Assembly: GCA_024679065.1 (NCBI GenBank)
Contig: JAGIQG010000016.1
Coordinates: 39,804,001-39,868,000, forward strand
DNA from: Sphyrna mokarran
Lineage: Eukaryota
DNA length: 64,000 nucleotides
Reading direction: 5' to 3'
Below are positions 4,111-58,330 of this stretch, in pieces. The notes under the pieces are model-generated. The model made no database searches and had not been told where the DNA came from. It worked only from the letters and a program-made list of their open reading frames with translations. The first letter of the stretch is position 1, and every line of letters begins with the position of its first letter. Made by a program: the position numbers and the translations under genes.

Positions 4111-4846
4111 GACTCCTTCTCTCCTCATCTTGTAGCCTCAGCTGTGGCAACCTCTAATAATGGCACTGCCAAGACTGCCAAGCTGCTGGCCAACTGATCA
4201 GTGGCAGCCTTTTACTTGGCTGTTGTCAGGAATATCCCATTCAGGGTCTTGTCATCCATTGGCACAGACTGAGAATGCGCTTTTGGACAGGACAGCCTGT
4301 GATTTGGCAGAATTCTGGTCACTGATTTCACTGCACTGTGAATGGAAATGACCAAGTCACAAATTCTGCGTTGAGAATTGTCCTTTACTAAATGATTCTT
4401 CAGAAATAGATTCATAAGATTTGCTAATTTAATTAACGGCTGATTACCTGAACATAATCGGTTTTGTTGCTTAATGGAATACATTTTACTCGTTAGTCGG
4501 GAGTAAAGTGTTAAATTTTGAGCCAGTTGGCAACTTGGAAAATGGGACAAATCCTTTCTAGGGAAAGGGAAGACATTGTGATTTGATTCTGGTTTCCCTT
4601 TGTTCAAATGTGTTGGCTGTGATTCTCTAATCACTCTCTGTGGGGGCACTAAGGCTGTATTAAGAGTAGTTTTTTGTACCTGAGTGCAAAGTTGATATTT
4701 TACATGGTGGTGCATTATGCCTAAAAGTAGAAGCTTTTTCATTTTACGTTAACGTCATTTTTGTGCCATGTTTCTAACTCTGATGAAGTTTGTTCAAGGG
4801 TGAAAAGAGCACTAATAGAGAAAAGTCTTAATGCCACTTACTTTCT

Positions 4847-5140
4847 GTGGCTGGCATAGTGGTTTGCACTGCTGCCTCACAGCACCAGTGACTCGGGTTC
4901 GATTCCTGGCTTGTGTCACTGTTGTGTGGAGCTTACTTGTTCTCCCCATGTGTGCGTGGGTTTCCTCCATGTGCTCCAGTTTCCTCCCACAGTCCAAAAA
5001 ATGTGTTGGTTAGATGCATTGGCAATGCTAAATTTTCCCTCAGTGTAGCCAAACAGGCACAGAGTGTGATGATTAGGGCATTTTCAGACTAACTTCTACT
5101 AATGTAAGCCAACTTATGGCATTAATAAATAAACTTTAAA
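4847..5140 (+). mobile_element. HE1-like V-SINE (tRNA head + V domain)
   Basis: A box TGGCATAGTGG, B box GGTTCGATTCC, V-domain (GTTCTCCCCATGTGTGCGTGGGTTTCCTCC...TTTCCTCCCACAGTCCAAA), tail AATAAATAAACTTTA. Confidence 0.85.
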
Positions 5141-6289
5141 AAAGTTTCTCCCTCTTTTGATTCCACTAGATATAAATAATTTCATAAATTAAACAGTTAT
5201 AAATTATTATTTTATTCAGGAAGTCATTTGGTCATTTTGACAATTATTGACCTATCGACAAATCCTTCTTTTCACTGAGTTGTTTATCTTGACTTAAAAA
5301 GAAATTCAGTGACAACTTCAAAACCAGGAACAGCAAAAACAGATAACCTTTGGAGAATGTGTTCCACATTCTCACCAATTTACCAACTCCAAACTACTAG
5401 GCCCAGGTCTGGAACAGAACCCATCTAACAGAACTGCGTGTAGGGGTATAATTCTGTGTAAGTAATAGGGAACACTTCGATACCTAAACATTATTAACAA
5501 AGTAAAAATATGGCCGTGGACACAGTTTACTCATAGTGGTGAACAATATGAATATTTACCTTTAAAAATAAGGTTTTCGTGATTTTATTGAGTTGATTTT
5601 TTTTCCCTAAACCTGATGGGAATTCCATTTAAAAACAGGGGTTCAAGCAGTCAAGCTATCCCAGCATGCACTCACTGATGTTGTCAATGACTGCGGTAGT
5701 CTAAAAAAAATTCATCTTTAAAAAGACCAGTTTCCGGAAAATGCTATGCTCCACACGCACCTTGGCAATTCTTCAGAAATGCCTCAACCAAAATTTGTTT
5801 ATAGTGTTTAGCTCCTTCAAAAATGATCATTCTGTCCCTAGCACATTTGATTTATTTCCTTCCTTATGTCTAAGGTTTTGCTCCACATGACTCTGCCATG
5901 CCTTGTGCTATGTCAGGTAATCTGTTTAAACTTGCTTATGTTCCTTTACAAGCAGTGAGCTTTTATGTTTTAGAGTGACCGTATTGATTCATCCACGATT
6001 TTCCCCTTATGTTGGGAAGTATCTTCTATCCAGCAAATTCCTGAAGTGACTCAGTGGAAATCAGGAACTTATTTTGTGGTAAATCTCAGGATGTAAGCTA
6101 ACTTGCCACCATGGACACCATTGAAATGCCTCATAAGCTACTATTTCTAAACTGGAGTTATGCCATCCCATGGAGCAAATGCAAGATGGCATCAACATTA
6201 ATAAATATAAAATCATGCTTCCTGACCTGCATCCTGAAGGGAGTTAACCTCAGTTCTGCTGCAATATGTTATCAAAAGTTCCTGACCAC

Positions 6290-6439
6290 TTAAAGTTCAT
6301 TTATTAGTCATAAGTAGGGCTTATATTAATACTGCAAAGAAGTTACTAGAATTCCTCTAGGTGACACAGTCCGACGGGTCAAGGTACTTAACCAGCACAT
6401 CTTTCAGAATGTTGGAGGGAACTGAAGCATTTGGAGGAA
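6290..6439 (-). mobile_element. HE1-like V-SINE, 3' half (split by CR1 insertion)
   Basis: Tail TAAAGTTCATTTATTAG.. and V-domain ending ..GGAGGAA. It continues at 9378 with AAACCCATGCAG (consensus GGAGGAAACCCACGCAG). Confidence 0.7.
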
Positions 6440-9377
6440 TAGGAGCAGAAAGAACAGAGTCGTTATAGTGGGAGATTTTAATCTCCCTAGGGTGGATTGG
6501 AAAGTACCTGGAGCTGGGGGTTTGGACGGGCAGGAATTTGTAAAATGTGTACTGGAAGGATCGTTGGAGCAGTATGTGGCTAGCCCGACTAGAGAAGGGG
6601 CTATATTGGATTTAGTTCTGAGTAATGAGCCAGGGCAGGTGGTTGATGTTGTAGTAGGGGTACATGTGGCTAACAGTGACCACAATTCTGTCTATTTTAG
6701 GATACAGATGGAAAAGGATGCTTGTTGCCCTAGGGGCAGGGTGCTGAATTGGGGGAAGGCTAACTATGGTCGGATTAGGCAGGAACTTAGGGAAACTGAT
6801 TGGGAACGGTTGTTCGAGGGTAAGTCCACGCTAGGCATGTAGGACTCTTTCAAGGGAATACTGAAAATGTTACAAGATAAATATGTGCCGGCCAAGAGCA
6901 AAGATGGGAAAGGTAGGATTAGAGAGCCGTGGATTACTAGGGATATTGAGGACTTGGTTAGGAAGAAAAGAGAGGTGTATAATAGGTCAAAGCAGCTGGG
7001 AATGGAGACAGCGTTGAAGGAATATAGAGAGAGTAGGAGGGAGCTCAAACGGGGAGTTAGAAGGGCAAAAAGGGAGCATGAAATGATTTTGGCGGATAGG
7101 ATTAAGGAAAATCCAAAGGCTTTTTACTCCTATGTTAGGAATAAAAGGGTGGTTAGAGGAAAAATCAGATCTCTTAGGGACAGAGGAGGGGAACTGTGCT
7201 TCGAGCACGAGGGAATGGCAGAGATCCTGAATAAATACTTTGCGTTGGTATTCATGAAGGAGAGGGGCTTGTTGACAGCTCCTGTCTCTGAGGGAGCTGT
7301 GGACCAGTTGAGGGAAATATCCATACCGGGGGAGGAAGTATTAGAGCTTCTAGGTAGTGCTAAAACTGATAAATCTCTGGGGCCTGATGGCATTTATCCC
7401 AGGCTGCTTAGGGAGGTGCGAGGTGAAATTGCTGGGCCTCTGACGCAAATCTTTGCCTCTTCCTTGGACACAGGTGAGGTTCCAGAGGACTGGAGAATAG
7501 CTAATGTTGTACCGTTGTTTAAAAAGGGTAGTAGGGATAACCCTGAAAATTATAGGCCGGTGAGTTTGACGTCAGTGGTAGGGAAGCTGTTGGAGGGGAT
7601 TCTTAGAGGCAGGATGTATAGGCACTTAGAGCGTTGCGATCTGATTAGGGATATGCAACATGGATTTGTTAAGGGGAGGTCGTGCCTTACAAATCTGGTA
7701 GAATTTTTTGAGGAGATGACGAAAATGGTGGATGAAGGACGAACCGTTGATGTCGTCTATGAGGATTTTAGGAAGGCATTTGACAAAGTCCCTCATGGGA
7801 GGTTAGTTGAGAAGGTCAAGGCTAATGGGATAAAAGGACAGGTAACTAGATGGATAAGTAACTGGCTTGGTAATAGGAGACAGAGAGTAATAGTGGAAGG
7901 GTGTTTTTGTAGCTGGAGATCGGTCACTAGTAGTGTGCCGCAGGGCTCGGTACTGGGACCTCTTCTATTTGTAATATATGTAAATGACTTGGAAGAGGGA
8001 GTAAGTGGAGTGATCAGCAAGTTTGCAGACAATACAAAGATGGCTGGACTTGCAGATAGTGAGGAGCTTTGTCAGGCAATGCAGCAGGACATAGATAGGC
8101 TGGTAGCTTGGGCAGACAGATGGCAGATGGAATTCAATCCTGATAAATGTGAGGTGATGCATTTTGGGAGAAAGAATGTAGGGGGGAGGTATATGATAAA
8201 GGGTAGACCTATTAAGAGTACAGGATCGCAGAGGGACCTGGGGGTGCAGGTGAACAAGTCTCTGAAGGTGGCAGAGCAAGTGGAGAAGGTTGTGAAGAAA
8301 GCATATAGTATGCTAGCCTTTATAGGAAGGGGTATAGAGTACAAGAGCTGGCCTTTAATGTTGCAGTTGTGTAAAACGTTGGTTAGACCTCATTTGGAAT
8401 ACTGCGTCCAGTTCTGGTCGCCTTACTACCGGAAGGACGTGGAGACTCTGGAGAGAGTGCAGAGGAGGTTTACCAGGATGATGCCTGGTATGGAAGGTCT
8501 GAGTTACGAGGAGAGGTTAGGCAAATTGGGACTGTTTTCCTTAGAAAGACGTAGACTTAGAGGAGATCTGATAGAGATGTACAAGATTTTGAAGGGGATG
8601 ATAGAGTAAACAGGGCTAAGCTTTTTCCTAGGATGGACTCAAATAGCACGAGGGGTCATGGGCTTAGGGTGAGGGGGATAAGGTATAATTTGGATGCTAG
8701 AGGGAGTTTTTTCACACAGAGGGTGGTGGGGGTATGGAATGCGCTGCCAAGTAAAGAGGTGGAGGCAGGTACTCTGGAGTTATTTAAGAAATACTTAGAT
8801 GGGCACATGAACAGAATGGGAATGGAGGGGATAGAAAACTGATTTAAAATAGGGATCATGAGCCTTGGGAGTCCCTGGGAAGTGTGTAAATAGATGATGA
8901 TATTGATGTACTTGTTTTTATCCTACAAGTGCTTTGGTCCACCTTGTTGTCTAACGAGGGACATACACGCGATGGGTCGTGAGAGGGCTGCTCTTGGATC
9001 TTTTTCGAGAGTATCCCAGTGCTTCATGTCGTTAGTGTACGCTTGACCTGGACCATCTGATGGGCAGCACGACAGCTCAGTGACTATCGCTATGCTGTGC
9101 AGATACATGGATTTGGGCCTGTGGGAGTTTGCGCATTCTCCCCGTGCTTGCGTGGATTTTCTCTGGGCACTCTGGTTTCCTCCCACAGCCCAAAGATGTG
9201 CTCTTAGGCTAATTGGCAAAACAAATTCTCCCTAAATTGTCTCAAATTTTGTTTTTAATCCATAAATCTATAAACATGGACAGGGATCGCGGGTAGAGGT
9301 GGGAACATCGGGGTGGCGGCATGGGCTCGTTGGGCCGAAGGGCCTGTTTCCTGTGCTGTTTTGTTCTTTGTTCTTTG
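6440..9377 (+). mobile_element. 5'-truncated CR1 LINE (copy A): ORF2 remnant + long 3' UTR
   Basis: ORFs 6468-6842 (GDFNLP, LDLVL, SDHN: AP-endonuclease C-part) and 6867-8609 (NYRPVSLTS, QHGF..GRSCLTNL, KAFDKVPH, VPQGSVLGP, FADNTK, RPHLEYC) are separated by a premature stop. There is a frameshift near 8600 and a (TTCTTTG)n tail. The catalytic DD is mutated to DN. Confidence 0.95.
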
Positions 9378-9495
9378 AAACCCATGCAGTCATGGGGAGA
9401 ACATGCAAACTCCATGCAGACAGTGACCCAAGCTGGGAATCAAACCCTGGCACTGTGAGGCAGCAGTGTTAACCACTGTGCCACCATGCCGCCCA
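9378..9495 (-). mobile_element. HE1-like V-SINE, 5' half (split by CR1 insertion)
   Basis: Reverse complement GGGCGGCATGGTGGCACAGTGGTTAACACTGCTGCCTCACAG... is the tRNA-derived head and joins 6290-6439. Confidence 0.8.
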
Positions 9496-17939: not shown

Positions 17940-18295
17940 AGTGTGCAGAGATGCCGGCATTGGACTGGGGTAAACTCAGTAAGAGGTCTGATAACACCAA
18001 TTTTAAATCCAACCTCACTTACTGTGCTGTCTGGAGACAATACACATCTCTCTAACCTGTGCTCAGTGCTCCTTCCACTCACATTGTTAGCCACTTTAAG
18101 ACTTGAATAGCAGGTTAGGTGTAAGGATTCACATTCTAATCAGCAATCTGTAAACTGTCTGTGCTGATATGTGTGCTATTGCAGACCAGACCACCTCATT
18201 CACCTGACGAAGGCTACAAAGGCCAAAAGCTTGCAAGTTTACTATCAAATAAATCAGTTGGATTTAAAATTGATGTTGTCAGACCTCTTACACTG
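17940..18295 (+). mobile_element. Penelope-like element pLTR remnant with inverted termini and decayed hammerhead
   Basis: Terminal inverted repeat (GTAAGAGGTCTGATAACACCAATTTTAAATCCAAC / GTTGGATTTAAAATTGATGTTGTCAGACCTCTTAC). CAC-CTGACGA-AGGC..GCC-AAAAGCTT is a hammerhead with GAAA mutated. Confidence 0.75.
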
Positions 18296-18849
18296 TCAGT
18301 GTGCCAGATGGATACTGTCCAGTTAATCCTCCCAACCACCTGGAGGCTTCAATAGCCTCCTAGCCCCTTGGAGACAAGTGGTGATTCCCACCATTCTTGT
18401 GCCATGCTGAAGATGAGAAGATCCCAGGAACTGGGAGAATTTGGTGTCAAATAGGCTTATACATATCTAAATCTACTTTTATTTGCTAATTGATCTTATG
18501 TCTTTTCTGAGTATAATTTAGTTTGCGCCATTAGAAAAGGACTGGGATGACTGTGAACTGTTTGAAACCAGCTGCGGAACCAATTTTTAGGCCCACACGT
18601 TATTTTCCGTGATCTGGACCAGGCGTGGCAAGGTTGGGAAATTACCCCCATCCTTTTTGCTTCAATCTGTCAAGCCCTGTAAGAATTTTGTTTGCTTCAA
18701 TTAGATTACCTCTTGTTCTTCTAAACTCTAGAAAATATAAGCCCAGTCTTCCCAATCTCTTCTTATAGTACAATCCCGCCATCCTAGAATCATCTGGTGA
18801 ACCTTCATTGCATTCCCTCTATGACAAGCATATACTTAGGTAGGGGGAT

Positions 18850-19650
18850 AAACATAAAAACATAAGAAATAGGAGCAGTAGGCCGTCTAGCTCTTCGAGC
18901 TTGCCCTGCCATTCAACAAGATCATGGCTGATCTGAAGTGGATCAGTTCCACTTTCCCGCTTTCTCCCCATAATGCTTAATTCCCTTGTCTATCAGAAAC
19001 CTATCTACCCTTGACTTAAATATATTCAGTGAGGTAACCTCCACCACTTCAATGGGCAGAGAATTCCAGAGACTCACCGCCCTTTGAGTGAAAAAGTTCC
19101 TTCTCAACTCCGATCTAAACTGCTCCTCCCTTATTTTGAGACTGTGCCCTCTAGTTCTGCTGTCCTTTCTAAGCGGGAAGAATTTCTCTACCTCTACCCT
19201 ATCTAGCCCCTTCATGATCTTATATATCCCTATAAGATTCCCCCTCAGCCTTCTAAACTCTAACGAGCAAAGACCCAGTCTATTCAATCTCTCCTCATAG
19301 GCTAACCTTCTCATCTCTGGTATCAGCCTAGTGAACCTTCTTTGCACTCCCTCCAAGGCCAATATATCCTTTCGTAAATGTGGTGACCAAAACTGCTCAC
19401 AGTACTGCAGTTGTTGCCTCACCAGTGCCCTGTACAGTTGCTGCAAGACCTCCCTGCTTTTATATTCTATCCCCCTCGCGATAAAGGCCAACATTCCATT
19501 CGCCTTCTTGATCACCTGCTGCACCTGCAGACTGGGTTTTTGCGATTTGTGCACAAGAACCTCCAGTCTCTCTGCACCATAGCATGCTGCAGCTTTTCAC
19601 CCTTTAAATAATAGTCCCCCCTACCATTATTTCTACCAAAGTGGATGACC
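18850..19650 (-). mobile_element. CR1 LINE 3' portion
   Basis: ORF 18943-19554 (KKANGMLAFI, FWSPHL, LEGVQRRFTR, TRGHSLKI, WNSLP) plus 3' tail. Older CR1 fragments flank it at ~18650-18845 and ~19655-20400. Confidence 0.92.
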
Positions 19651-21429
19651 ACTTTAATAATGAAAACTGTACACAATATTCCAGATGTGGCCTCAACAAC
19701 GCTCTACATAACTGTAACAAAACTTTAAACTCATGTATTTAAATCCTCTTTCAATATAGGCCAAGATTTTATTCACCTTCCTAATTGCTTATTGCAACCG
19801 AAGTTCACTTTCAATGATATATGAACATGGGCAGCCAGATCCATTTGGTCACCAACACTTCCTAAAGTCTCAACACTTAAGAAATGGTCTGCATTTCTAC
19901 TTTTCCTATCATAGTGGATAAATTCAGATTTTTCTAAATTGTAAAATCACAAGAAATAGGAGCAGAAGTAAGCCATTCAGCCCCTCAAGCCTACTCTGCC
20001 ATTCAATATGATCACAGCTAATCATACTTAATACCACTTTCATGCCTGTCCCCAAATCCCTTGACTTCCATGTTGATCAAAGTCTGCCCAACTCAATCTT
20101 GAATACTTTCAGTGACTCAGCTTCAATCGTTCTCTGGGGCAAATAATTCTACACTTTATAAACTCTCTTTATCTTTCTCTTAAATGGGAGCTCCTTTATT
20201 TTGAAACTGTGTCCCCAGTTCTAAGTTGCACCATGAAGTGAAACATCTTCTCATCATCTACTCTGTCAATCTGAATCTTGTGTGTTATATTGCACTTGCC
20301 AAGTTCTTGCCCTCTTACTGAGGCAAAGAAGCTTTTTTTATCCTCCTCACAACTCACATTCACACCAAGTTTTGTGTCATCAGCAAATCTGGAGATATTG
20401 GTCAGGGGTTGGGGGGGGTGGATGCGAGGGGATTTTACAGCCTCACTCAACTCAAGACAGGAAAGCCCCACCGAAGGTCAGCGGACATTTCCATTGCCCA
20501 CTCCTCACCCACTCCAATACCATGGCGGACAGGGCAATAGCATTCCAGCGATTAAATTTAGTCCCAACATCCAAATCATGAATATAGACTATGAATAGCT
20601 GGGCCCCAAGTTATCAGGCAGTCGAAGGGTTAGATAGAGTTCACAGAGATGTCACACATTACCAGCAGATGGGACATTGGCACCGAATGTCTATCAGTTG
20701 CTTTAAAATCACCATTTCATGTAAGATCCTGCACAAACTGGGGATGGATTCAGCACAACCAACATGCATGCATGCCTCAGAAATGCTCTTCAATCAATAG
20801 GGCTCCCAGGCAATCCAACTGCCATTTAGTAGCATTAGACAGGAATGAGTTTGTACTTTCCGAGATGTGTGCCCATCTACTTACCTGTATGGATTGTAAT
20901 TTATCCTGAACGGCTCCCTAGTGGTGCTTTACAGAATCCCTCTGTGAAGCCTCAGAATGCAAATAAATATAGGCCCATGTTTTATGCCCCTCTCCCCATT
21001 CGCCGGATGGGTTTTGAGGCAGGGGGAGACTATGTAATCACATGGACAGGATTCCCTCAGCGAGGCCGCCTACTGTGATTTTATGGTGGGATAGGTCAGA
21101 CCTCAATGGGAAGCCTGTCCTTACCCTTTAAAGGCTCCACAGTAGTCACTTCATGACCACTTAAGAGTCTTTTCCCATCCATTCTCAATTCTCAGGCTGG
21201 TGGGTACCTGCTGACTGAACGCAGGAAATAGAAAAAGTTTTCATTAGGCTTTGATAGTGTGTGGGCTGAGGTGAAAATTGCTGGTGGAGCTCTTTTCATG
21301 TGCCTGCTACCCTTGTTCTTTATGGTAGAGAGTTTGGAAGATGCTGCCTGAGGATCAGGTGAGTTCCTGCAGTGCATCAGGAAGATGAGCATTGTAACAG
21401 GTCAGGGATAGACATGTGGGCATGTCGGC

Positions 21430-21725: not shown

Positions 21726-21763
21726 AGCTTGGATGAGTGAACCGTCACATAGGGAACACTTAT

Positions 21764-24570
21764 ATAGGAGTGGACGGGGAGGAATTTGTACAGTGTGTTT
21801 TGGAAGGGTCCTTGGAGCAGTATGTGGATGGCCCGACTAGAGATGGGGCTATACTGGATTTGGTTCTGGGGAATGAGCCAGGCCAGGTGTTTGATGTCGA
21901 GGTAGGAGAGCATGTGTCAAATAGTGATCACAACTCTGTCTGCTTTAGGATATTAATGGAAAAGGACGAGACCTGCCCAGAAGGGAAGGTATTTAACTGG
22001 GGGAGGGCTAGATACAGCCAGATTAGGCAAGATCTTAAAGATACCGACTGGGATAAGCTTTTCGAGGGCAGGTCGACGAGGTACATGTGGGAGTCTTTCC
22101 AGGGAAAACTAAACTCTCTGCAGGAAAGATACGTGCCGGCAAGGAGGAAGGATGGGAAAGGTAGGATTAGAGAACCGTGGCTTACCAGGGAGATTGAGGA
22201 CTTGATCAGGAAGAAGCAAGAGGCTTACATTAGATCTAGGCAACTGGGGACTGAGACAGCGCTGGAAGCTTATAGAGAGTGTAGACGGGATCTTAAAAAG
22301 GGTATTAGAAAGGCAAAAAGGGGCCACGAGGTGGCTCTGGCAGGTAGGATTAAGGAAAATCCAAAGGCATTTTACACCTATGTAAGGAGCAAAAGGATGG
22401 TTAGAGGCAAGATTGGACCTCTTAGGGACAGAGGAGGGGATCTATGCTTAGAGACTGAGGGAATGGGGGAGATCCTGAATGAATACTTTGCGTCGGTATT
22501 CACGCAGGAGACTGGACAGATGTCTGTGCCTGATGTTGACAAAGTTGAGGATCGGTTGAGGGAAATGAGGATTACGAGGAAAGAGGTGTTGGGGCTGTTA
22601 GGCAGCTTAAAGACATATAAAGCTCCGGGGCCTGATGGCATTTACCCCCGGCTGCTAAGGGAGTTGAGGGAAGACTTGGCTGGGCCTCTGACGCAAATCT
22701 TTGTCTCTTCCTTGGACACAGGTGAGGTCCCAGAGGACTGGAGGATAGCAAACGTAGTACCGTTGTTTAAAAAAGGTCAGAGGGCTCACCCAGGGAACTA
22801 TAGGCCGGTGAGCTTGACTTCAGTTATAGGTAAGCTAATGGAGAGGATCCTTAGGGGCAGGATGTATGAGCATCTGGAGCGCTGCGATCTGATCAGGGAT
22901 ACGCAGCATGGCTTCGTCAAGGGGAAGTCTTGTCTTACAAATCTAGTGGAAATTTTTGAAGAAGTGACAAAAACAGTTGATGAAGGACAGGCTGTTGATG
23001 TCGTCTACATGGATTTCAGTAAGGCGTTTGACAAGGTTCCTCATGGTAGACTGATAGAGAAGGTGAAGGCGCATGGGATACAGGGTTGGGTATGTAGATG
23101 GGTCGAAAACTGGCTCGGAAGGAGGAGACAGAGGGTAGTAGTGGAAGGCTCTTTTTCCAGCTGGAAGCCTGTCCCTAGTGGAGTGCCACAAGGCTCAGTA
23201 CTAGGTCCTCTTCTATTTGTGGTCTACATAAACGACTTGGAAGTTGGGATAGGTGGTGAGATCAGCAAATTTGCTGATGACACCAAGATGCTTGGATTGG
23301 CGGGTACAGAGGAGCAGTGTCAGGCAATACAACAGGACATAGGTAGGTTGGTAGACTGGGCAGATAGATGGCAAATGGAATTTAATCCGGATAAATGCGA
23401 GGTGATTCATTTTGGCCGGAAAAATGTAGAAGAGAGTTATAGGATAAAAGGTAAAACTATTCGGAGTATAGAGACGCAGAGAGACCTGGGGGTGCAGGTT
23501 CACAAGTCTCTAAAGGTGTCTTTACAGGTGGAGAAGGTGATAAAGAAAGCGTATAGTATGTTAGCTTTCATAGAAAAGGGTATAGAATACAAGAGTAGGA
23601 GTTTGATGTTGCATTTGTATAGAACGTTGGTTAGGCCTCACTTGGAATACTGCGTCCAGTTCTGGTCGCCGTACTATCGGAAGGATGTGGAGTCCTTGGA
23701 GAGAGTGCAGAGGGGGTTTACCAGGATGCTGCCTGGTATGGAAGGACTGTCTTATGAGGAACGATTAAATAGACTGGCGTTGTTTTCCCTTGAAAGACGT
23801 CGGCTTAGAGGGGATCTCATAGAGGTGTATAAGATTATAAGGGGTATAGATAGAGTAAATGGAGGTAAACTTTTTCCACCTTCAGAAATGGATAGGACGA
23901 GGGGTCATGGCCATAGAGTGAGGGGGGCTATGTATAAGACGAATATTAGAGGGCAGTTTTTCACACAAAGGGTAGTGGGGGGTGTGGAATGCACTGCCGA
24001 GTAAGGTGGTGGGAGCAGGCACGCTAGGGCTGTTTAAGGGTCTCTTGGACAGCCACATGAGCGTTATGCAGATAGAGGGATACAGTAGGACTGTTTAACT
24101 ACGGCTTTTTTTTTTCCCACAGGTAATTCGGTCCAACTTGACCAACAAGGAGCATGCATTCGGCAGGTGGTGCGAGGACAGCTCTTGGGTGTTGATTCAT
24201 GGGTTGCCTGGTGCTTCATGTCGTAAATGAGTGCTTTATGTGGACCATCTGAAGGGCACCATGACAGCTCAGAGACTATCGATGTGGCTGTGCAAACACT
24301 TGGAATTGGGCCGGTGTCTGCGGGAGTTTGCGCGTTCTCCCCGTGGTTGCGTGGGTTTTCTCCGGGCACTCCGGTTTCCTCCCACATACCAAAAATTCGC
24401 TCTTAGGCTGATTGGGAAACAAATTGTCCCTATAGTGAGAGTCTTCCATATTAGGAATAACCTAAATCTATAATAGGATAATGGATTTGCTACTATATAG
24501 TTATGACGGCGGCGCGGGCTCGTTGGGCCTAAGGGCCTGTTTCCCGTGCTGTGTTGCTCTTAAAAAAAAA
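21764..24570 (+). mobile_element. 5'-truncated CR1 LINE (copy B): long open ORF2 + long 3' UTR
   Basis: ORF 21737-24004 (755 aa) is colinear with copy A and keeps intact RT motifs (DFSKAFDKVPH, VPQGSVLGP, FADDTK). It has a frameshift in the G-run near 23977-23982 and ends ..GGCCTGTTTCCCGTGCTGTG + A-run. Confidence 0.95.
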
Positions 24571-24706: not shown

Positions 24707-25192
24707 GATGTGGAGGTGCCGGTGTTTGGCTGGAGTGGGCATAGTAAGAAATCTCACAGCACCAAGTTAAAGTCCAACGGATTTATTTGGAATCATGAGC
24801 TTTCAGAGTGCTGCTCCTTCATCAGACATGGCACCTGCTGTCAAGCTGGTGTACAAAGTAGTTGAGGAGTATGAGAGAAGTGTGATGGCAGAGTCTCTCA
24901 GCATATTCTATATTGTAGGTCGACTTGAGTGGGTTCATGGTCTATAGTCCTTTTGGGATCTTGTCTGCTTTCTTGCATCTTTGTAAAAGCTTGATGTCTG
25001 TGTCGATATGCACAATCTTCTTGGAGATCCTCTCTACTCTAAGCCAATGATTTGTAGTGTCGATGGTAACCATGATGTAGAGATGGATTGGGGTGGGCAC
25101 ACTCACTTTTTGGAGGAGCAGCTCTCCGAAAGCTTGTGATTTCAAATAAGCCTGTTGGACTTTAACCTGGTGTTGTGAGACTACTTACTGTG
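24707..25192 (-). mobile_element. Short Penelope-like element: pLTR pieces + ORF N-terminus
   Basis: Minus-strand MVTIDTTNHWLRVERISKK..IKLLQRCKKADKIPKGL (PLE N-terminal C..IPKGL motif) starts right after the pLTR end CTACATC. A hammerhead-bearing pLTR lies at 24707-24826 (-) and an inverted pLTR piece at ~25100-25192 (+). Confidence 0.8.
24793..24830 (-). ncRNA. Minimal type I hammerhead ribozyme motif (PLE pLTR)
   Basis: Minus strand: CUGAUGA-A-GGAG(CAGCA)CUCU-GAAA-GC-UC^AUGA. The conserved core is complete, with the palindromic AGCU stem III typical of PLE minimal hammerheads. Stem I pairing is weak. Confidence 0.7.
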
Positions 25193-27055: not shown

Positions 27056-27772
27056 TAAAGAAGTCTCACAATACTAAGTTAAAGTCCAACAGGTTTATTT
27101 GGTAGCAAAAGCCACTAGCTTTTAGATAGCTGGCTGCCACTTCATCAGGTGAGTGGGAGTTCTATTCACAAATAGGGCATATAAAGGTACAAACTCAATT
27201 TACAGTATGATGATTGGAATGCGAATCTTTACAGCTAATCAAATCTTGAAGGTACAGACAATATGAGTGGAGAGAGTGTTAAGCACAGGTTAAAGAGATG
27301 TGTATTGTTTCCAGAACATCAGTTAGTGAGATTTCGCAAGTTCAGGCAAGTTGTGGGGGTTACAGATAGTGTGACATGAACCCAAGGTTCAGGCCATCCT
27401 CATATGTGCGGAACTTGGCTATCAGTCTCTGTTCAGTGACTCTGCGCTGTCGTATGTCGTGTCATCTCATGTGAGAACACCGTCCACCAGGTACACGGTA
27501 CATACACTTGCAACACGGCCAATGTTGTCTACTTGACGCGCTGCAGGAAAGGGTGTCCCGAGGCATAGTACATTGGGGAGACCATACAGATGCTATGACA
27601 ATGGATGAATGAACACCACTTGACAATCACAGGCAAGACTGTTCTCTTCCTGTTGGGGAACACTTCAGCAGTTACGGGCATTCAGCCTCTAATCTTCAGG
27701 TAAACGTTCTCCAAGGCAGTCTTCACGACACAAGACAGCACACAGTCGTTGAGTAGAGATTAATAGCCAAGT
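27055..27772. mobile_element. Penelope-like element with inverted pLTR and GIY-YIG endonuclease remnant
   Basis: 27055-~27460 is a minus-strand pLTR/ORF end with a decayed hammerhead (CTCAC-CTGATGA..). ~27470-27772 on + translates HGTYTCNTANVVYLTRCRKGCPEA*YIGETIQML*QWMNEH..VGEHF. Confidence 0.85.
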
Positions 27773-28439
27773 CCCTGGTGCTGTGAGGTAGCAGTGCTAA
27801 CCACTGAGCTACCCCTTGATGATTGTAATGGTAATATGCAATGGGATGACAGAGTAAAGCATGCTGGAGCCATACTGAAACTCTTGCATCTTGGCATTAA
27901 ATCTGCAGATTGCTGTGTGCCAGAAGATCGACATCAGGCTGCCAGGAGCATCTAATATAAATTTACTGCGAGAGGAAAAGTGCAAAAGTTTGCTGATCTG
28001 AACAAAATTGTGCTGTATTCCATTGTTGAATGGCCCATGGACAAGGTATGGAGAGTTGCTGATACCTGTGGAATTGGATATGGAGGAATACTCAGCAACA
28101 TTAGAATAACTTGAAGCTAAACTCCAGAAATATCATGTGGGAATAGAAAAGTTATTCTGCAGAGCATAAGAACAGTGGTTAGTACACACTCAAAAGTAAT
28201 TTATTTTAGTTCCATCGCTCGTTAGTTACACATTTGGCAATAATTTACAAAAATATCTGAAAATATTCAGTTATGTTTCACTTCCAATACCTAAAGGATT
28301 ATTGTCAGTAAGTCATTATTTTAGATAAAAACAATCTTGCAAACCATTGCTTATAAAACTTAAAAAAAATCTTTTGTATCCTCTGGTTCTGAATCTGTTG
28401 ATTTTTTCCAGACTGGGTCCAAGCCTGAATTCCCTAACA

Positions 28440-28745
28440 GGGTGGCACGACAGCACAGTGCTTAGCACTGCCACCTCACAGCGCCAGGGACCTGGATTCG
28501 ATTCTTGGCATGGGTCACTGCCTGAGTGGAATTTGCGCGTTCTCCCTATGTCTGCGTGGGTTTCCTATGGGGGCTCTGGTTTCCTCCCTCAGTCCAAAGA
28601 TATGCTGGCTTGATGCATTGGTCATGCTAAATTCTCCCTCAGTGTTCCCGAACAAGCGCCGGAATATGCCAACTACAGAATTTTCACTGTAACTTCACTA
28701 TCGTGTTAATGTAAGCCTATTTGTGATACTAATAAATAAACTTGA
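28440..28745 (+). mobile_element. HE1-like V-SINE
   Basis: tRNA head, GATTCGATTCTT B box, V-domain, same tail type as 4847-5140. Confidence 0.85.
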
Positions 28746-30911
28746 AACCTTTCCTATGGTGAGAATATCCGGTCCCGCTGCAGGGAATGGAGATTTGACT
28801 GATTGCCAAATTCTCCATCTCACTACCATGCAACATCGGAGGATTCCCAAGTGCTCAAATCACATCTACCCTGAGCCAGTGATTTCAGGCAGATCATTAC
28901 AATTTTGCAACCATTACTGCAAAATCCAATCTTATCCTTGCCCCATATCTGGTGTGTATTTCAGCAGGGGTTAGTAATTTAAGTTTCCTTTCCCTTATCA
29001 ATAGTGGCAGCAGCGAATTGGACTACTTCTAGCACAACTTGCAAACCTCTATGAAGAAGACCTCTGAAAATGCTAAAATGTGAGAGGGGTAAGAAATAGT
29101 TATTAGCGAGTAGGAAGAGGAAGAGGACAAGCAGATGAAATGATCAAGCAGCAGATGCAGATAAAGCCAAGTGATCCCTCAATCAACTAATTACATCAGA
29201 GCTCAGCAGTCTTGGCCCATGAGTTGTGAGTGGTGGAGGACAGCTCGATAACTAATGGGAGGATGTGACTCCATGGACACATCCACCATCAATGATGATG
29301 GTACTGTGTGTGTGAAAAAACAAGGGTGAAGAGTTTACAATCATCTTTAGCCTGGTTAATCCATTTACTTTTGAAGACCTCACCATCATAACCATTGTCC
29401 TTCAACCAATTTGATTGGTAGAAGTGAGAAGACGGAGACCTTGGATGAATTTGAAAATAAGGCCAGTAATTTTGCATTCAATCTATTGTGATATGAAGAT
29501 TTTGTGCGTGGCACAGCTCAACAAACTTATGGATTTACATCAATATGGCATGGGGTTTAGTGCATGCAAGGCAAGTTTCAATTCCACATAGTCAACCAGA
29601 ATGTTGAACAACTGTTGCGATTCCATGAAAATATTGCACTCGGGCTAATCCTCCTTAGGCCGGACATGCACATCTTACAACAACAAGCACTAGAGATGTA
29701 GGAATATTAGAGACTATTTGACTGTGATATTATTAGGAAGATATCACATGAGGCTGGATGATTCAGTGTCACCCACTCTCTGCAGTCCAAGGAGATTAGG
29801 AAGCAAAAGACAAACTAGACAGAATGACAGGACTGGATTTTGTAGACCCGTAGATGGAGCCATGGAATGGCTGTCTGCAATGAGTTACCTTACATGGGCC
29901 ACTTACTAATTGCTGATGGTGCGAAGCCAGACTAGCAAGACAAAGGATACATAGCAGATGGCCACTCCTGAGGACAAATATACCCTGCAGTATTTCTTCA
30001 ACGTGACAAATCATCTATCAGAGTTATTCCTATAAATACTGAACAGACTGCATCCCTGCACCAACTTCTCCCCCAGGACGCTGGCAAGAGAACTACAACA
30101 GTGCATTCAACACACACAAGGAACCTGCTTTCAGCCTATCCTGTGTCATAATACTTTGATATCTGAACACCTGTAGTGTTATCAACAGGTGTATCTCAGT
30201 GCGAACTTGGAGCAGTGTGTATCCAGAATGGCAGACCAGTGGCTTTTGCATTGAGAGACCTCACTGATACTGAAACTCGCTATGCAAACATCTCACTCTT
30301 GTTTTTGCATATCAGAAACTTCAAGGTTTAATTTAAGGCCTGCCCACCACTGAGGCTAACCACCATCCTCTAAACACCCCTCCAGTCACCACATCACAGA
30401 AAATGAGGCTCCACGGTACAATCTCAGTGCAATCTATAAGTGTAATAAGGAACTATACTTAGCAGATCCCTTTTAAGAGACCACCTACCCACACTGACCA
30501 AGCTGAGCACAAGGAGGGTGGTGACTGTATGGCAATCTGAGTGCTGTCATCACAGAAAACTGAAGAACTCAAAGCTGTCCTACAAATGGAGTATACATGC
30601 AAGCAACTCCACAACATCATCATGTTGGGCTGGCCTCATTCGCAAAAGAACTTTCACATGAGCCCTGCACTTTTTATGCCACGAGGAAGAAGTTACCAGT
30701 GCAAGATGGACTGACATTGCTTGTCTAGATGTTTGTAATCCCTCTGCAGAAACACTACATCCAGCAGCCCCACCAAGGACATCTGGGGTTCGAACCGACA
30801 AAGCGAAGGGAAAAATAAACTATGTATTGGCCATCAATGTATGGTGACATAGAGAGAAAGGTGTCCAGATATGCAGCATGCAATATACTCAAGCCCCACC
30901 AAACCAAAGAA

Positions 30912-31226
30912 CTGGGTGGCACAGTGGTTAGTACTGCTGCCTCACAGCGCCAGGGACCTGGGTTCGATTTCTGGCTTGGGTCACTGAATGTGTGGAGTTT
31001 GCACATTCTTCCCATAACTGTGTGGGTTTCCTTTGGGTACTCCGGTTTCCTCCCACAGTCCAAAGACGTGCAGGTTAGGATGGATTGGCAATGTTAAATT
31101 GTCACTTATTGTCAGGGGAATAGCCAGGGTAAATGCATGGGTTATGGGGCTGGGACATGGGTGAGATTGCGGTCAGTGCCGATTCAATAGGCCAACTAGC
31201 TTCCTTTTGCACTGTATGATTCTATG
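30912..31226 (+). mobile_element. HE1 V-SINE inserted in Gypsy integrase
   Basis: Full head, V-domain and tail. The Gypsy reading KE|PLL resumes after it, and GAAC is present on both flanks. Confidence 0.9.
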
Positions 31227-31499
31227 AACCACTGCTTTTTCATGAGATTCCAGAAGTTCCATGATCACTCATTGCAACAGGTGTAATTGACACGAATGGG
31301 AAACAGAATCTGCTCCTTTTTGATTCATTCTCAGGGTGGTTTGAAGCAGATTACTTACCTAACATGAAGACCACCACTGTAATCCAGAACCTGGAGGGAA
31401 CTTAGCCATGTATGGCACTCAATAATGACTAATAATGGACAATGCCAGGTAGTTGTATGCAGGGAATCCGAGGAACATTGTAAGGAGCAAGGAATCCCA

Positions 31500-34724: not shown

Positions 34725-35178
34725 TTGTGATGGGCATTCAGCCTTTGATCTTCAGGTAAGCGTTCTCCAAGGCGGCCTTCACGACATACAATAATGCAGA
34801 ATTGCTGAGGAGAAACTGATAGCCAAGTTCTGCACACGTGAGGATTGTCTCAACCAGGATCTTGGGTTCATGTCATACTATCTGTAGTCTCCATGAATTG
34901 CCTGGGGCTTGCAAAATCTCACTAACTGTCCTGGCTGGAGACAATACACATCTCTTTAACCTGTGCTTAATCCTCTCTCCACTCACATTGTCTGTACCTT
35001 TAAGACTTGATTACCTGTAAAGACTCACATTCCAACCATTACCTTGTAAATTGAGCTTGTGTCTTTATATGCTCTGTTTGTGAACATGATTCCCACTCAC
35101 CTGAGCAGCACTCCGAAAGCTTGTGCTGCCAAATAAACCTGTTGGACTTTAACCTGGTGTTGTGACACTTCTTACTGG
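34725..35178 (+). mobile_element. Penelope-like element 3' end + pLTR
   Basis: GHSAFDLQVSVLQGGLHD..AEEKLIAKF..LNQDLGFMSYY matches the 27470-27772 family. The pLTR has an internally deleted hammerhead (CTCACCTGA--GCAGCACTCCGAAAGCTTGTG). Confidence 0.8.
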
Positions 35179-35559
35179 GCTAAGCTGTCGGGTCAGAGGA
35201 TCAAAGAGCTATCAGGAGTCTGAAGTACAGCAAGGCACCTGGGCTTGATGAGACATCAGCAGAGCTGTTGATTAATGACAAGAACATGGTCTCGGGACCT
35301 GTTCAATAATATTTGGACTGCGGAAGTTGTCTCAGATGACTGGGGGAAGCGAATGATTGTCAAGCTGCCAAAGAAAGTGGACTCCACTGACTGCAATAAT
35401 TGGAGAAACACAACACTGTTCTCAGCACCAGTCTTCAGCATGGTGCTTCTCAACACACTGAGAGCAGAAATAGACAATACATTTTGGGAAGAATAGGCAG
35501 CTTTCTGGGGTGACAGATCAAGCTGCAAACAAACATTTACACTCAGGAACGCAGCAGAG

Positions 35560-35910
35560 GAGTGACACAGTGGCACTGCTGCTTCACACCGCCAGGGACC
35601 CAGGTTCAATTCCAACTTTGGCTGACTGTCTGTGTGGAATTTGCACATTCTTCCTGCATCTGTGTAAGTTTCCTCCAGATGCTTCAGTTTCCTCCCACGG
35701 TCCAAAGATGTTAATTTGTTAGGTTAGGTTAATTGGCCACGCTAAATTGCCCTTTAGTGTCCCCAGATATGTTGATCAGAGGGATTGGAAGAGTAAATGT
35801 GTGGGGTTATGGGGCAAGCCTGGGTAAGAGTCGGTGCAGACTCAATTGGTCAAATAGCCTCCTTCTGCACTGTACTGTACTGTTCTGCACTGTAGGGATT
35901 CTATGATTCT
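35560..35910 (+). mobile_element. HE1 V-SINE
   Basis: B box GGTTCAATTCC, V-domain, tail CTGCACTGTAGGGATTCTATGATTCT. Confidence 0.85.
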
Positions 35911-36789: not shown

Positions 36790-36981
36790 NNNNNNNNNNN
36801 NNNNNNNNNNNNNNNNNNNNNNNNNNNNNNNNNNNNNNNNNNNNNNNNNNNNNNNNNNNNNNNNNNNNNNNNNNNNNNNNNNNNNNNNNNNNNNNNNNNN
36901 NNNNNNNNNNNNNNNNNNNNNNNNNNNNNNNNNNNNNNNNNNNNNNNNNNNNNNNNNNNNNNNNNNNNNNNNNNNNNNNNN
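36790..36981. other. Assembly gap (N run)
   Basis: Run of n characters. Confidence 1.
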
Positions 36982-54006: not shown

Positions 54007-56690
54007 CTGCAGCCGGCCTGTCCAGTGCAGCCAGCGTCTCCAGTGCAGCCAAGCACTTCCAATGCAATTCAATGCCGATCTCTCTCATGACCTTCAGTGG
54101 CTGCAATGCATTTTGCTGAGGTTAGCTCCAATGCAGCCAGCTTCTCCAATGCAGCCAGCATCTCCAGTACAGCTGGCATGTCCAATATATCCAGCGTCTC
54201 CAATGCAGCTGGAAACTCCAGTGTAGTTCAATGCCAGTCTCTCACATGCATCTCAGTGTCCTCAATGCTGATGTTTTCCCCAATGCAGCCGGCATGTCCA
54301 GTGCAGCCAGTGACTCCAATACAGCCTGCATCTCCAGTGCTGCTGGTGTCACCAATGCAACCATCGTCTCTAATGCAGCCAGTGTCTCTAATGCAGCCGG
54401 TGTCTCTAATGCAGTCAGCATCTCCAATGCAGCCAGACTCTTCAATGCAACAGGTGTCTCCAGTGCAGCCGGTGCCTCCAGTGCAGCCGGTGCCTCCATT
54501 GTAGCTGGGATCTCCAATGCAGCCGGCGTCTCCAATGCAGTCGGAGTCTTTAATGTAGCAGGTGTCTCCAGTGCAGCCAGTGTCTCCAATGCAGCTGGGA
54601 TTCCAACGCAGCCAGTGTCTCCAACGCAGCCGGCCTCTCAAGTGCAGCCATCGTCTCTAGTGCAGCTAGCATTTCCAATGCAACTGGTGTCTCCAGTGCA
54701 GCCAACGTTTCCAGTGCAGCCAGTGTCTCCAGTGCAGCCAGCATTTCCAATGCAGCTGGTGTCTCCAGTGCAGCAAACTTCTCCAATGCATTCAGCATCT
54801 CCGATGCAGCCATTATTGCTAGTGCAGCCAGTGTCCAGCAGCCACTGCAGCCAACATCTCCAGTGCATCTAGAATCTCCAATGCAGCCGGCGTGTCCAGT
54901 GCAGCCACTGACTCTAATGCAGCTGACGCCACCAATACAGCTGGTTTGTCCAATGCAGCCGGCATCTCCAGTACAACTGGTATCTCTAGTGCAGCCGGTG
55001 TTCAGCTGCCAATGCAGCCAGTGTCTCCAGTGCTGCCAAGCACTTCCAATGAAGTTCAGTGCCGGTTTCTCTCAAGAACCTCAGTGTCTGCAATGCATTT
55101 TGCTGATGTTACCTCCAATGCAGCCAACATCTCCAACTTGACTGGTGTCTCCAATACAGCCAGTTTCTCCAATGCAGCCAGCTTCTCCAGTGCATCTGTC
55201 ATCTCCAATGCAGCCAGGGTCTCCAGTGCAGCTGGTGTCTCCAGAGCAGTTCAGTGCCAGTCTCTCTCTTAAGCATCTCAGTATCCTCAATGCATTTTGT
55301 TGATGTTTTCCCCAATGCAGCCAGCATGTCTAATGCAACTGGCATCTCCCATGCTGCTGGTGTCTCCAATGCAGCTGGCCTCTCCAGTGCAGCCAGTGTC
55401 TCCAATGCAACCGGCGCCTGCAGTGCAGCCAGCATCTTCAATGTAGCCCACATCTTCAAAGCAGCCAGTGTCTCCAATGCAGCCGCTGTCTCTAATGTAG
55501 CTGGGTCTCCAATGCAGCTGGGTTCTCAAATGCAACTAGTGTCTCAGGTACAGCCAGTGAATCCAATGCAGCCGGCCTCTCCAATGCAGCCTCCCTCTTC
55601 AGTGCAGCCAGCATCTCCAATGTAGCTTGCCTTTCCAGTGCAGCCAGTGTCTCCAATGCAGCTGGAGTCTCTAGTGCAGCCAGTGTCTTCAATGCAGCCA
55701 GCGTCTCCGATGCAGCCAGCATCTCCAGTGCATCCAGTGTCTCCAATGCAGCCGGCGTCTCCAATGCAGTCGGCCTCCCCAGTGCAGCCGATGTCTCCAA
55801 TTCTGCTGGTGACTTCATTGCAGCCAATATCTTCAATGCAGCTGGCGACTTCAATGCAGCTGGTGTCTCCAGTGCAGCTGGCATCTCCCGTGCAGCCTAC
55901 ATCAACAATGCAGCCAGCGTCTCCAGTGTAACCAGTACCTTCAATGTAGCTGGCATTTCCAATGCAGTTGGGGTCTCCAATGCAGCCAGTGTTTCCAATG
56001 CAGCCGATGTCTCCATTGCAGCCAGCGTCCCCAGTGCAGCTGTCATCTCCAATGCAGCCCATGTCTTCAAAGCAGCCAATGTCTCCAATGCAGCAGGTGT
56101 CTCCAATGCAGCTGGGGTCTCCAATGCAACCAGTGTCTGCAGTATAGCCAGTGTCTCCAATGCAGCCAGAATCTTCAATGCAACCAGTCTCTCCACAGCA
56201 GTAAGCAATGTCTCCAATGCATCTGAGTGAGAATCCCTCCAATGGAGCTTTGTGCTTTCAATGCATTTCAGTCCCAGTCTCTCCAAGGCAGCTGAGCATT
56301 CCAATGCAGTTCAGTGCCAGTCTCACACATGCACCTCAGTGTCTGCAATGCATTTTCCTGATGTTATCTCAAATGTAGCTGGCATCTCCAGTGCAGTAGG
56401 GTGTCCAATGCAGCCGACGTCTCCAATGCAGCCGGGGTATCCAGTGCAATCAGCGTGTCCAGTGCAGCTGATGTCTCCAATGCAGCCAGAATCTCCAGTG
56501 CAGTCGGCTTGTCCATTGCAGCCAGCCTCTCCAATGTAGCCGGCATCACCAGTGCAGCCGGCGTCTCCAGTGCAGCCTGTGTCTCCAATGAAGCCTGTGT
56601 CTCCAGTGCAGCCAGCGTCTCCAGTGCAGCCAGCATCTCCAATGCAGCTGATGCCTCCAATACAGCCAGAATGTCCAATGCAACTGCCAT
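54007..56690. repeat. 18-bp minisatellite array (right arm) with recurring spacers
   Basis: Same unit and orientation as 43012-46072. Confidence 0.95.
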
Positions 56691-58330
56691 CTAACACACT
56701 CCTCCCACTGCCCCATTCTAACAGATTCCCCCCCATTGTCCCCATTCTAACACACTCCCCCCACTTCCCTCATTCTAACACACTTCCCCCACTGTACTCA
56801 TTCCAACACACTCCCCCCCCCGACCCCATTCTAACCCACTGCCCCCATTCTAACACACTCTCCCACTGCCCCCATTCTAACACACTCCCCCTACTGCCCC
56901 ATTCTAACACACTCCCCCTACTGCCCCATTCTAACCCCCCACGCCCTTCTAACACACTCCCCCACTGCCCCCATTCTAACACATTCCCCCTACTGCCCCC
57001 ATTCTAACACACTCCCCCACTGCCCCCATTCTAACACATTCCCCCATGCTAACTTCCCACTGCCCCATTCTAACACATCCACTGCCCATTCTAACACATT
57101 CCCCCACTGCCCCCATTCTAACACACTCCCCCTACTGCCCCATCTCCCACCACACTCCCCCCTACTGCCCCCATTCTAACACACTCCCCTACGCCCCCAT
57201 TCTAACACACTCCCCCTACTGCCCATTCTACACATCTCCATTGCCCCATTCTACTCCCTGCCCCATTCTAACATACTCCCCTTACTGCCCATTCTAACAC
57301 ACTCTCCCATGCCCCCATTAACACACTCCACTGCCCCCTCTACCACTCCCCCGTGCCCCCATTCTAACATTCCCCTTACTGCCCCATTCTAACACACTCT
57401 CCCCACTGTCCCCATTCTAACACACTCTCCCACTGCCCCCATTCTAACACACTCTCCCACTACCCCCATTCTAACCACTCCCCACTTCCCCCATTCTAAC
57501 ATAGTCCCCCACTTCCCCCATTCTAACACACTCCCCCACTGCCCTCATTCTAACACACTCTCCTGACTGTTCCCATTCTAATACACTCTCCCCACTGCCC
57601 CCATTCTAACATAATCTCCCGACTGTCTCCATTGTAACACACTCTCCCCACTGCCTCCATTCTAACACCCTCCCCCACTGCCCCCATTCTAACACACTCT
57701 CCCTACTGTCCCCATTCTAACACATTCTCCCGACAGCCCCCATTCTAACACACTCCCCCACTGCCCCATTCTAAAACACTCCCTCCACTGCCCCATTCTA
57801 ATACAGTCTCCCACTAATAAAACTCTCCGAGCCCCATTCTAACACACTCTCCCCACTGTCTCCATTCTAACATACTCTCCTCACTGCCCCCACTCTAACA
57901 CACTCCCCCACCCCATCTAACACACTCTCCCCACTGCCCCATTCTAACACACTCCCCCACTGCCCCATTCTAAACACTCCCCCTCCACCGCCCCATTCTA
58001 ACACACTCTCCCCACTGTCTCCATTCTAAAACACTCCCTGCTCCGCTGCCCCCACTCTAACACACTCTCCCCACTGTCTCCATTCTAACACACTCTCCCC
58101 ACTGCCCCCACTCTAACACACTCTCCCCACTGCCCCCATTCTAATACAGTCTCCCCACTGTCTCCATTGTAACACACTCTCCCCATTGCCCCCATTTTAA
58201 CACACTCTCCCCACCCACTGCCCTTATTCTAACACACTCTCCCCACTGGCTATTTTCTAACACACTCCTCATTACACTGTTTCTAACACACTCCCCCATT
58301 GCTCCCATTCTAATACAATCCCCCTACCAT
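56691..58330. repeat. C-rich 25-28 bp minisatellite (CCCCATTCTAACACACTCCCCCACTG)n
   Basis: ~1.6 kb tandem array; the opposite strand has regular G4-G5 runs. Confidence 0.95.

Follow-up and report, generated by a model that had tools for sequence, protein, structure and literature searches.

Two LINE copies in the genome of Sphyrna mokarran end in long 3′ UTRs that contain what looks like a SINE deprived of its promoter. This raises the question of whether an autonomous LINE lineage captured a SINE, and whether the V domain of that SINE has since been kept because it serves the LINE that now carries it. We addressed this question within a 64,000-nt stretch of contig JAGIQG010000016.1 (the window), which holds both copies, called here A and B, together with free SINEs and other LINEs; its CR1 and V-type SINE content is that of typical elasmobranch DNA. 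CR1 for the LINEs, and V and HE1 for the domain and the SINE family, are names that we assume here, homology having been tested against the free SINEs of the window.

Two CR1 copies with long 3′ UTRs

Copy A (6440-9377, plus strand) and copy B (~21740-24561, plus strand) are both 5′-truncated inside ORF2, and both reading frames are lightly damaged. The ORF2 of A (6440..8843, plus), truncated within the endonuclease, has one stop at 6840 and one frameshift near 8607, and matched the Pfam families Exo_endo_phos_2 (in its 5′ part) and RVT_1; that of B (21737..24098, plus) has a single frameshift near 23983, keeps a 755-aa open frame and matched RVT_1, so that both an APE endonuclease and a reverse transcriptase are represented. 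The ORF2 stop codons lie at 8841-8843 in A and at 24096-24098 in B. Over their whole length the two elements are 75% identical (2860 columns), and identity at the first, second and third ORF2 codon positions was 84, 87 and 66%, indicating that ORF2 has been under purifying selection and, by the same token, that the lineages of A and B were active while they diverged.

Several hallmarks of CR1 are present in A and B, namely a 3′ stem-loop with short terminal repeats, 5′ truncation and, in A, a short target duplication. Among the relatives of their reverse transcriptase those with names were bird and turtle proteins (42-50%), unplaced ones reached 66-70%, and none was labelled CR1. In an ORF2 tree of 15 rows, from which a further CR1 copy (D) was left out on account of its length, 2 of the 12 inner branches were supported, and A and B were mutually nearest (83%), a pairing to which we give no weight.

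The first-pass annotation had described UTRs of about 500 nt, unlike those of the other CR1s, and this held: the UTR measures 534 nt in A (8844-9377) and ~463 nt in B (24099-24561), against ~80-100 nt at two further CR1 3′ ends read in the window, those of copy C (minus strand, stop near 18943) and copy D (minus strand, tail near 49330-49385). Only the start proposed for the UTR of B, ~24085, was about 14 nt too early. The two UTRs align with 339 of 470 columns identical (72%, E 3e-76), and have the same layout from 5′ to 3′: an unalignable spacer, then the linker (150 nt) and the tRNA-like head, next the V-type domain, and lastly an AT-rich spacer followed by the CR1 stem-loop. In A, where the post-stop spacer occupies 8844..8910 (42 gap columns and 16 matches against B), the linker (8911..9061) opens T-rich and continues as a long, branched hairpin whose closing stem pairs 8936-8941 with 9049-9054; it is followed by the decayed head (9062..9123), the V-type domain (9124..9232), the AT-rich spacer (9233..9316) and the CR1 3′ stem-loop with its short T-rich terminal repeats (9317..9377; 46 of 52 positions as in B). 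The corresponding features of B are the linker hairpin (24105..24253), the head (24254..24322), the V-type domain (24323..24430) and the stem-loop (24510..24561), all of them, like those of A, on the plus strand. That the 150 nt 5′ of the head are also common to A and B had been overlooked in the first-pass annotation.

The conserved block has no reading frame shared by A and B and no clear codon periodicity (15, 7 and 11 mismatches by position). Hammerhead, snoRNA and coding roles were rejected for it, the motifs being misplaced or not common to the two copies and a joint frame being absent. Separately, the T-rich tract that opens the linker in both copies (24085-24120 in B, 8905-8930 in A) looks like a canonical 3′ splice acceptor in B, and in A the AG is off by one base; such an acceptor, clear in B only, could trap host exons onto a tail that CR1 can mobilise.

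The insertion of A can be followed at its edges. It splits an older V-type SINE on the minus strand, whose 3′ part lies at 6281..6439 and whose 5′ part, comprising the head and the start of V, lies at 9378..9494. When 9494..9378 was joined to 6439..6281, the rejoined SINE aligned end to end with the free copies 28436-28760 and 4838-5150, with two extra bases at the junction, and the target-site duplication is 2-3 nt long (left copy GAA, 6437..6439, plus strand; right copy 9377-9379, whose first base could equally belong to the tail repeat). The proposal that the SINE was split cleanly (6439|9378), and that LINE and UTR moved as one unit, is thus borne out. Within the window a linker profile matched A and B only; the block does not occur there as a free short unit, and in A it moved together with ORF2.

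Several other repeats surround these elements. At 18663-19943 (minus strand), copy C apparently lies within or beside another CR1 fragment, the ORF2 of which continues at 18782-18663. Just downstream of B there is an inverted pair of an ~80-bp repeat, 83% alike (24740-24821 and 25192-25111), with further copies at 35103-35176, 27058-27102 and 18246-18291. A related 18-bp minisatellite forms two arrays (43013-46055 and 54126-56682, with 169 and 138 copies) that contain many spurious open frames, additional tandem arrays lie at 56690-58324 (28 bp), 48013-48662 (16/32 bp) and 47411-47589 (25 bp), and an assembly gap at ~36800-37000 (192 N in the window) adjoins a dinucleotide-rich repeat.

Origin of the SINE-derived segment

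The window holds V-type SINEs at 11 other loci, of which one is in two pieces, and a profile built from six free copies matched the V-type domain in both UTRs (A 9118-9219, E 3.9e-20; B 24307-24417, E 6.6e-19) without reaching the head; a well-preserved V domain ahead of the CR1 terminal motif had been claimed for both copies, and these matches confirm it. A and B agree at 95 of 108 V positions, and with a CpG-restored consensus of the free SINEs at 83 of 109 (A) and 82 of 108 (B). The restoration matters to this comparison, as three of eight V-core sites earlier taken as shared and derived resembled CpG decay in the free consensus. In the V tree A and B form one clade apart from the five free SINEs (support 100/99), and at 17 of the 108 ungapped columns they share a state unlike the free consensus, one that in 9 columns occurs in none of the five free copies. 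The start of the head and the gap in its T arm are likewise common to both.

The segment therefore has a single origin, and the V clade indicates one SINE capture by the LINE lineage and not two insertions, in line with the earlier proposal that an autonomous LINE had taken up the SINE. Since the 5′ truncation points of A and B differ, their flanks are unrelated and the divergence of their ORF2 is codon-structured, the two copies represent two active sublineages of a common master that already carried the SINE piece. The abundance of V-type SINEs around them would make two independent insertions into dead LINEs conceivable, with a segmental duplication or an assembly artefact as further options. 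The derived V states with the clade support, the identical head start and T-arm gap, the different truncation points, the unrelated flanks and the codon structure of ORF2 speak against this whole group of explanations, to which we give a very small probability.

Of all parts of the UTR, the head has the least secure identification. Under plain scoring its z was 2.0 in A and 0.0 in B. In an ungapped 31-nt test A matched at 19 of 31 positions, a score reached by 45 of 5000 shuffles, with 9 of the 12 mismatches being transitions, and B matched at 17 of 31, reached by 590 of 5000 and hence not significant. With transition-aware scoring against six free heads, the observed score was reached by 0 of 2000 shuffles for A and 3 of 2000 for B. 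We accept the homology as real but modest, weak in B by two of the three tests, because the best site in both copies is the first base of the SINE, 62-69 nt before V, and the differences are mostly transitions. The decayed tRNA-derived head that had been reported for both copies is significant under transition-aware scoring and weak under plain scoring.

Anchored at this site, the head alignment contains one gap, of 24 nt in A and 19 nt in B and with uncertain edges, over the T-arm hairpin that bears the B box; in A, the A box is altered as well. The motif GWTCRANNC, which we take to be the B-box consensus, is absent from both UTRs even at one mismatch, and it is exact in 5 of 10 free SINE copies. 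ARAGORN found no tRNA anywhere in the 64-kb window. Neither A nor B has intact Pol III A and B boxes, as the T arm is deleted; the promoter has been lost, and the absence of the B box noted at first reading is upheld.

The head also bears on the direction of transfer, since V might be native to the UTR of this CR1 lineage and have been taken from such a LINE by V-SINEs. In RTE and Vingi, SINE bodies have come from LINE UTRs (PMC5786205), and attempts have been made to trace V to a LINE. This direction is nevertheless quite improbable, given that the tRNA-head remnant upstream of V begins exactly at the SINE 5′ end, that V-SINEs range to cnidarians and molluscs, that the best V-like match in 87 distant loci of the CR1 group, many of them without a 3′ end, had E 0.52, and that both of the other CR1 3′ ends read in the window have a short UTR.

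With capture by the LINE as the preferred reading, the tail bears on the identity of the donor. The tail has 14 diagnostic columns: in 8 of them A and B share the state of CR1 copy D, in 4 that of four free SINEs, and in the remaining 2 they match neither, a balance that leans to D. The final stem-loop may thus be the LINE's own, the SINE having been inserted upstream with loss of its own tail, or the donor may have had a different one. In the idea that the LINE absorbed its own SINE parasite, capture stands and the word "own" is weakened by these columns. The free V-type SINEs themselves carry two kinds of tail, a CR1-type stem-loop at 4841-5140, 28440-28750 and in the split copy 9494-6281, and an unrelated tail ending in an AATAAA-like motif at 13971-13630, 30906-31230, 35557-35900 and 11407-11070, which by comparison of the copies points to tail exchange within one genome.

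Beyond the window, 3 of the 23 sequencing runs listed contained 50% or more of the 31-mers from 8500-9377. One of them (0.88) may be the source itself. The other two, from one study and with other organism labels, held 0.67 and 0.53, above the ceiling of 0.50 expected from ORF2-only, V-only and tail-only 31-mers if sampling is even, a hint that this UTR may also occur outside the present sample. A run guessed to be RNA reached 0.46, and runs with a share of up to 0.30 fit ORF2 alone. An ORF2 search of public contigs found no close relative (80 metagenome loci kept out of 243, with best segments at up to 48% identity; 0 viral loci; 7 genome loci, at up to 55%), and a linker-head pattern had 0 matches in viral and metagenome contigs. 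The 87 distant CR1-group loci, many of them lacking a 3′ end, gave no SINE or linker profile match below E 0.49, and the linker has no counterpart in these fetched loci or elsewhere in the window. Searches for relatives also met vertebrate-type LINE reverse transcriptases annotated on short contigs of bacterial assemblies (P0071, P0083 and P0100; L081-L086), probably host contamination.

Evolutionary rates along the UTR and their possible cause

The distances between A and B, which all rest on two copies in one window, differ sharply along the element. The neutral references gave K2P values of 0.60 at fourfold ORF2 sites (158 sites) and 0.66 in the spacer after V, the latter from a gappy AT-rich alignment. 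The V domain stands at 0.13, roughly a fifth of the neutral rate, and is accompanied by the head (0.18), the tail (0.13) and the second codon positions of ORF2 (0.15), with the two halves of the linker at 0.41 and 0.27. The contrast stays when CpG columns are removed (fourfold 0.54, V 0.10), and for the 78-nt V core it is significant both against fourfold sites (Fisher p 7e-6) and against the spacer (p 3e-5). Slow stretches of the UTR are interspersed with fast ones, and a positive control is provided by the tail, whose function is established.

The possibility raised at the outset that V is no more conserved than neutral UTR sequence can thus be set aside. That V was retained after the promoter was lost also holds, V being far slower than neutral DNA and the B box gone, but retention is not a property of V alone: in A-B divergence the V core is indistinguishable from the head (p 0.63) and from the tail, and the linker is slow too. 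Since the promoter-dead head and the linker also appear constrained, the argument goes to a module of ~300 nt (linker, head and V), to which the V domain would belong, and not specifically to V. We infer that selection is the cause of the slow evolution, and the comparison of the two copies suggests a function in cis for V or for the module as a whole.

A neutral history would produce a similar pattern if the SINE were a passenger and the block 9018-9232 had recently passed from one CR1 sublineage to the other through gene conversion or template switching. There is little interruption in the slow block, a double crossover at 9018-9232 would yield much the same block, and module swapping is common in SINEs, whose conserved domains have been proposed as recombination hotspots (PMC5804259). 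A double crossover would, however, be required, because the spacer between V and the tail stands at 0.66. Moreover, the distances from linker to V grade from 0.41 through 0.27 and 0.18 to 0.13 without a step, the changes in the linker mostly keep its base pairs, and the clade formed by A and B rules out free SINEs as the source of a conversion, so that we regard exchange as unlikely.

The base pairs in question belong to a consensus fold of the linker, a branched long hairpin whose 32 pairs comprise 21 unchanged, 8 with one-sided and 3 with two-sided changes, the fold having been fitted to both sequences. Its z was -3.3 on the plus strand (1 of 300 column shuffles) and -2.0 on the minus strand, compared with -4.0 for the tail and -2.9 for the best of 17 ORF2 windows. 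Taken alone, the linker of A gave -2.1 or -0.8 depending on the bounds and the hairpin of B -2.9 (1 of 200 shuffles), making the fold signal modest and suggestive. The linker matched no Rfam family, the best E values of 1.4 (A) and 5.5 (B) being far below gathering scores. V has no conserved fold (consensus z -0.3) and is therefore probably read as sequence, which a role at the DNA level fits as well as one at the RNA level.

The selected block could accordingly be a DNA site in the 3′ UTR, acting through transcription factors or chromatin, by which master copies are expressed more strongly in the germline. Besides the conservation of V without a conserved fold, this would agree with the exaptation of SINE conserved domains as enhancers (PMC4824008) and with the persistence of V in the DNA transposon MER6 (PMC6887750). 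The copies of MER6 nevertheless decay at an approximately neutral rate in the latter account, the adjoining linker folds better on the sense strand, and the segment lies in sense orientation in both copies; a DNA-level role is, in our view, improbable.

We infer instead a mechanism at the RNA level. A V-type SINE would have entered the LINE 3′ UTR once, in sense orientation, in the ancestor of both CR1 sublineages, whether by insertion into a master copy, by template switching or by transcription running on into a SINE downstream. Deletion of the T arm with its B box would have removed the internal Pol III promoter and hence any competing SINE RNA bearing the LINE's own tail. The linker hairpin, the dead head and V would then have been kept by purifying selection on the copying success of the LINE, the module most likely acting on the LINE RNA itself, where V, read as sequence, would be bound by a host factor and the RNA would thereby be stabilised, localised or favoured in the competition for ORF2p. 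The advantage of V to the LINE would be the same as that which keeps V in SINEs. We consider it rather probable that the module works in this way, as an RNA-level cis module whose V binds a host factor favouring its RNA and whose T-arm loss stops a competing Pol III transcript.

Precedents and significance

The arrangement in A and B has parallels among other transposons. BovB lineages with SINE-derived ends are, like A and B, autonomous LINE lineages with fixed SINE sequence; unlike A and B they belong to the RTE clade, and their SINE parts come from BovB itself or lie at the termini. We know of no conserved-domain retention in BovB.

Closer by taxon and clade, HE1 and the CR1-like LINE HER1 of sharks and rays are listed as a tail-sharing pair (PMC3747384). 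A and B resemble this pair in the succession of tRNA-like head, V-type domain and CR1 stem-loop tail, and in having a CR1-type ORF2. The sharing described for HE1 and HER1 is, however, confined to the 3′ tail, whereas A and B hold the head and V inside the LINE without a B box, and their tail appears to differ from that of the free SINEs of the window.

The capture of V by another transposon is not new as such, its nearest precedent being the MITE MER6/MER6A, which captured a V-SINE, lost the promoter and spreads V (PMC6887750). As in A and B, a V-SINE was caught by another transposon, its promoter was lost and V was spread by the host element. On the passages of that paper considered here, MER6 differs in that it is a non-autonomous DNA transposon, does not pass through RNA and has lost the whole head, whereas the host of A and B is a retrotransposon; those passages also show no constraint against an internal neutral control, which in A and B is supplied by ORF2.

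In a Repbase-wide survey of LINE-SINE relationships only RTE and Vingi contribute to SINE bodies, and no source is given for conserved bodies such as V in the part considered (PMC5786205). The RTE and Vingi LINEs described there carry SINE-related sequence in a UTR, as A and B do, but belong to other clades, the sequence being RTE-derived and, in Ingi-3_AC, located in the 5′ UTR (PMC5786205). Alu/L1 and U6/L1 chimeric insertions are products of template switching or ligation between SINE and LINE RNA (bioRxiv 2025.02.02.635956); unlike A and B, these have the small RNA 5′ of a truncated LINE and are single dead insertions.

According to a 2016 paper, the highly conserved domains of SINEs are not found in LINEs. 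Our search of openly accessible papers returned no description of a CR1 with an embedded V-SINE UTR. SINEs and 3′ UTRs are not discussed in the passages found of a 2026 survey of vertebrate CR1s, and the UTR may already exist unannotated among the shark CR1 consensuses of its supplement (PMC13343379).

Taken further, the findings allow the tentative reading that a CR1 lineage domesticated the core of its parasite. The Pol III promoter would have been deleted, and V, the dead head and the hairpin selected as strongly as the second codon positions of ORF2, with V acting as a cis enhancer of retrotransposition independent of Pol III. If this is true, no highly conserved domain of a SINE would have been demonstrated within a LINE before, and the idea could be tested in a single cis reporter. 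A V domain in a LINE brings its own neutral clock, in the form of the fourfold sites of ORF2, and is no longer coupled to transcription by Pol III. It would therefore separate the host-benefit, promoter-support and RNA-level explanations of V, and allow deletions within a single element to take the place of the two-component assay that a SINE requires.
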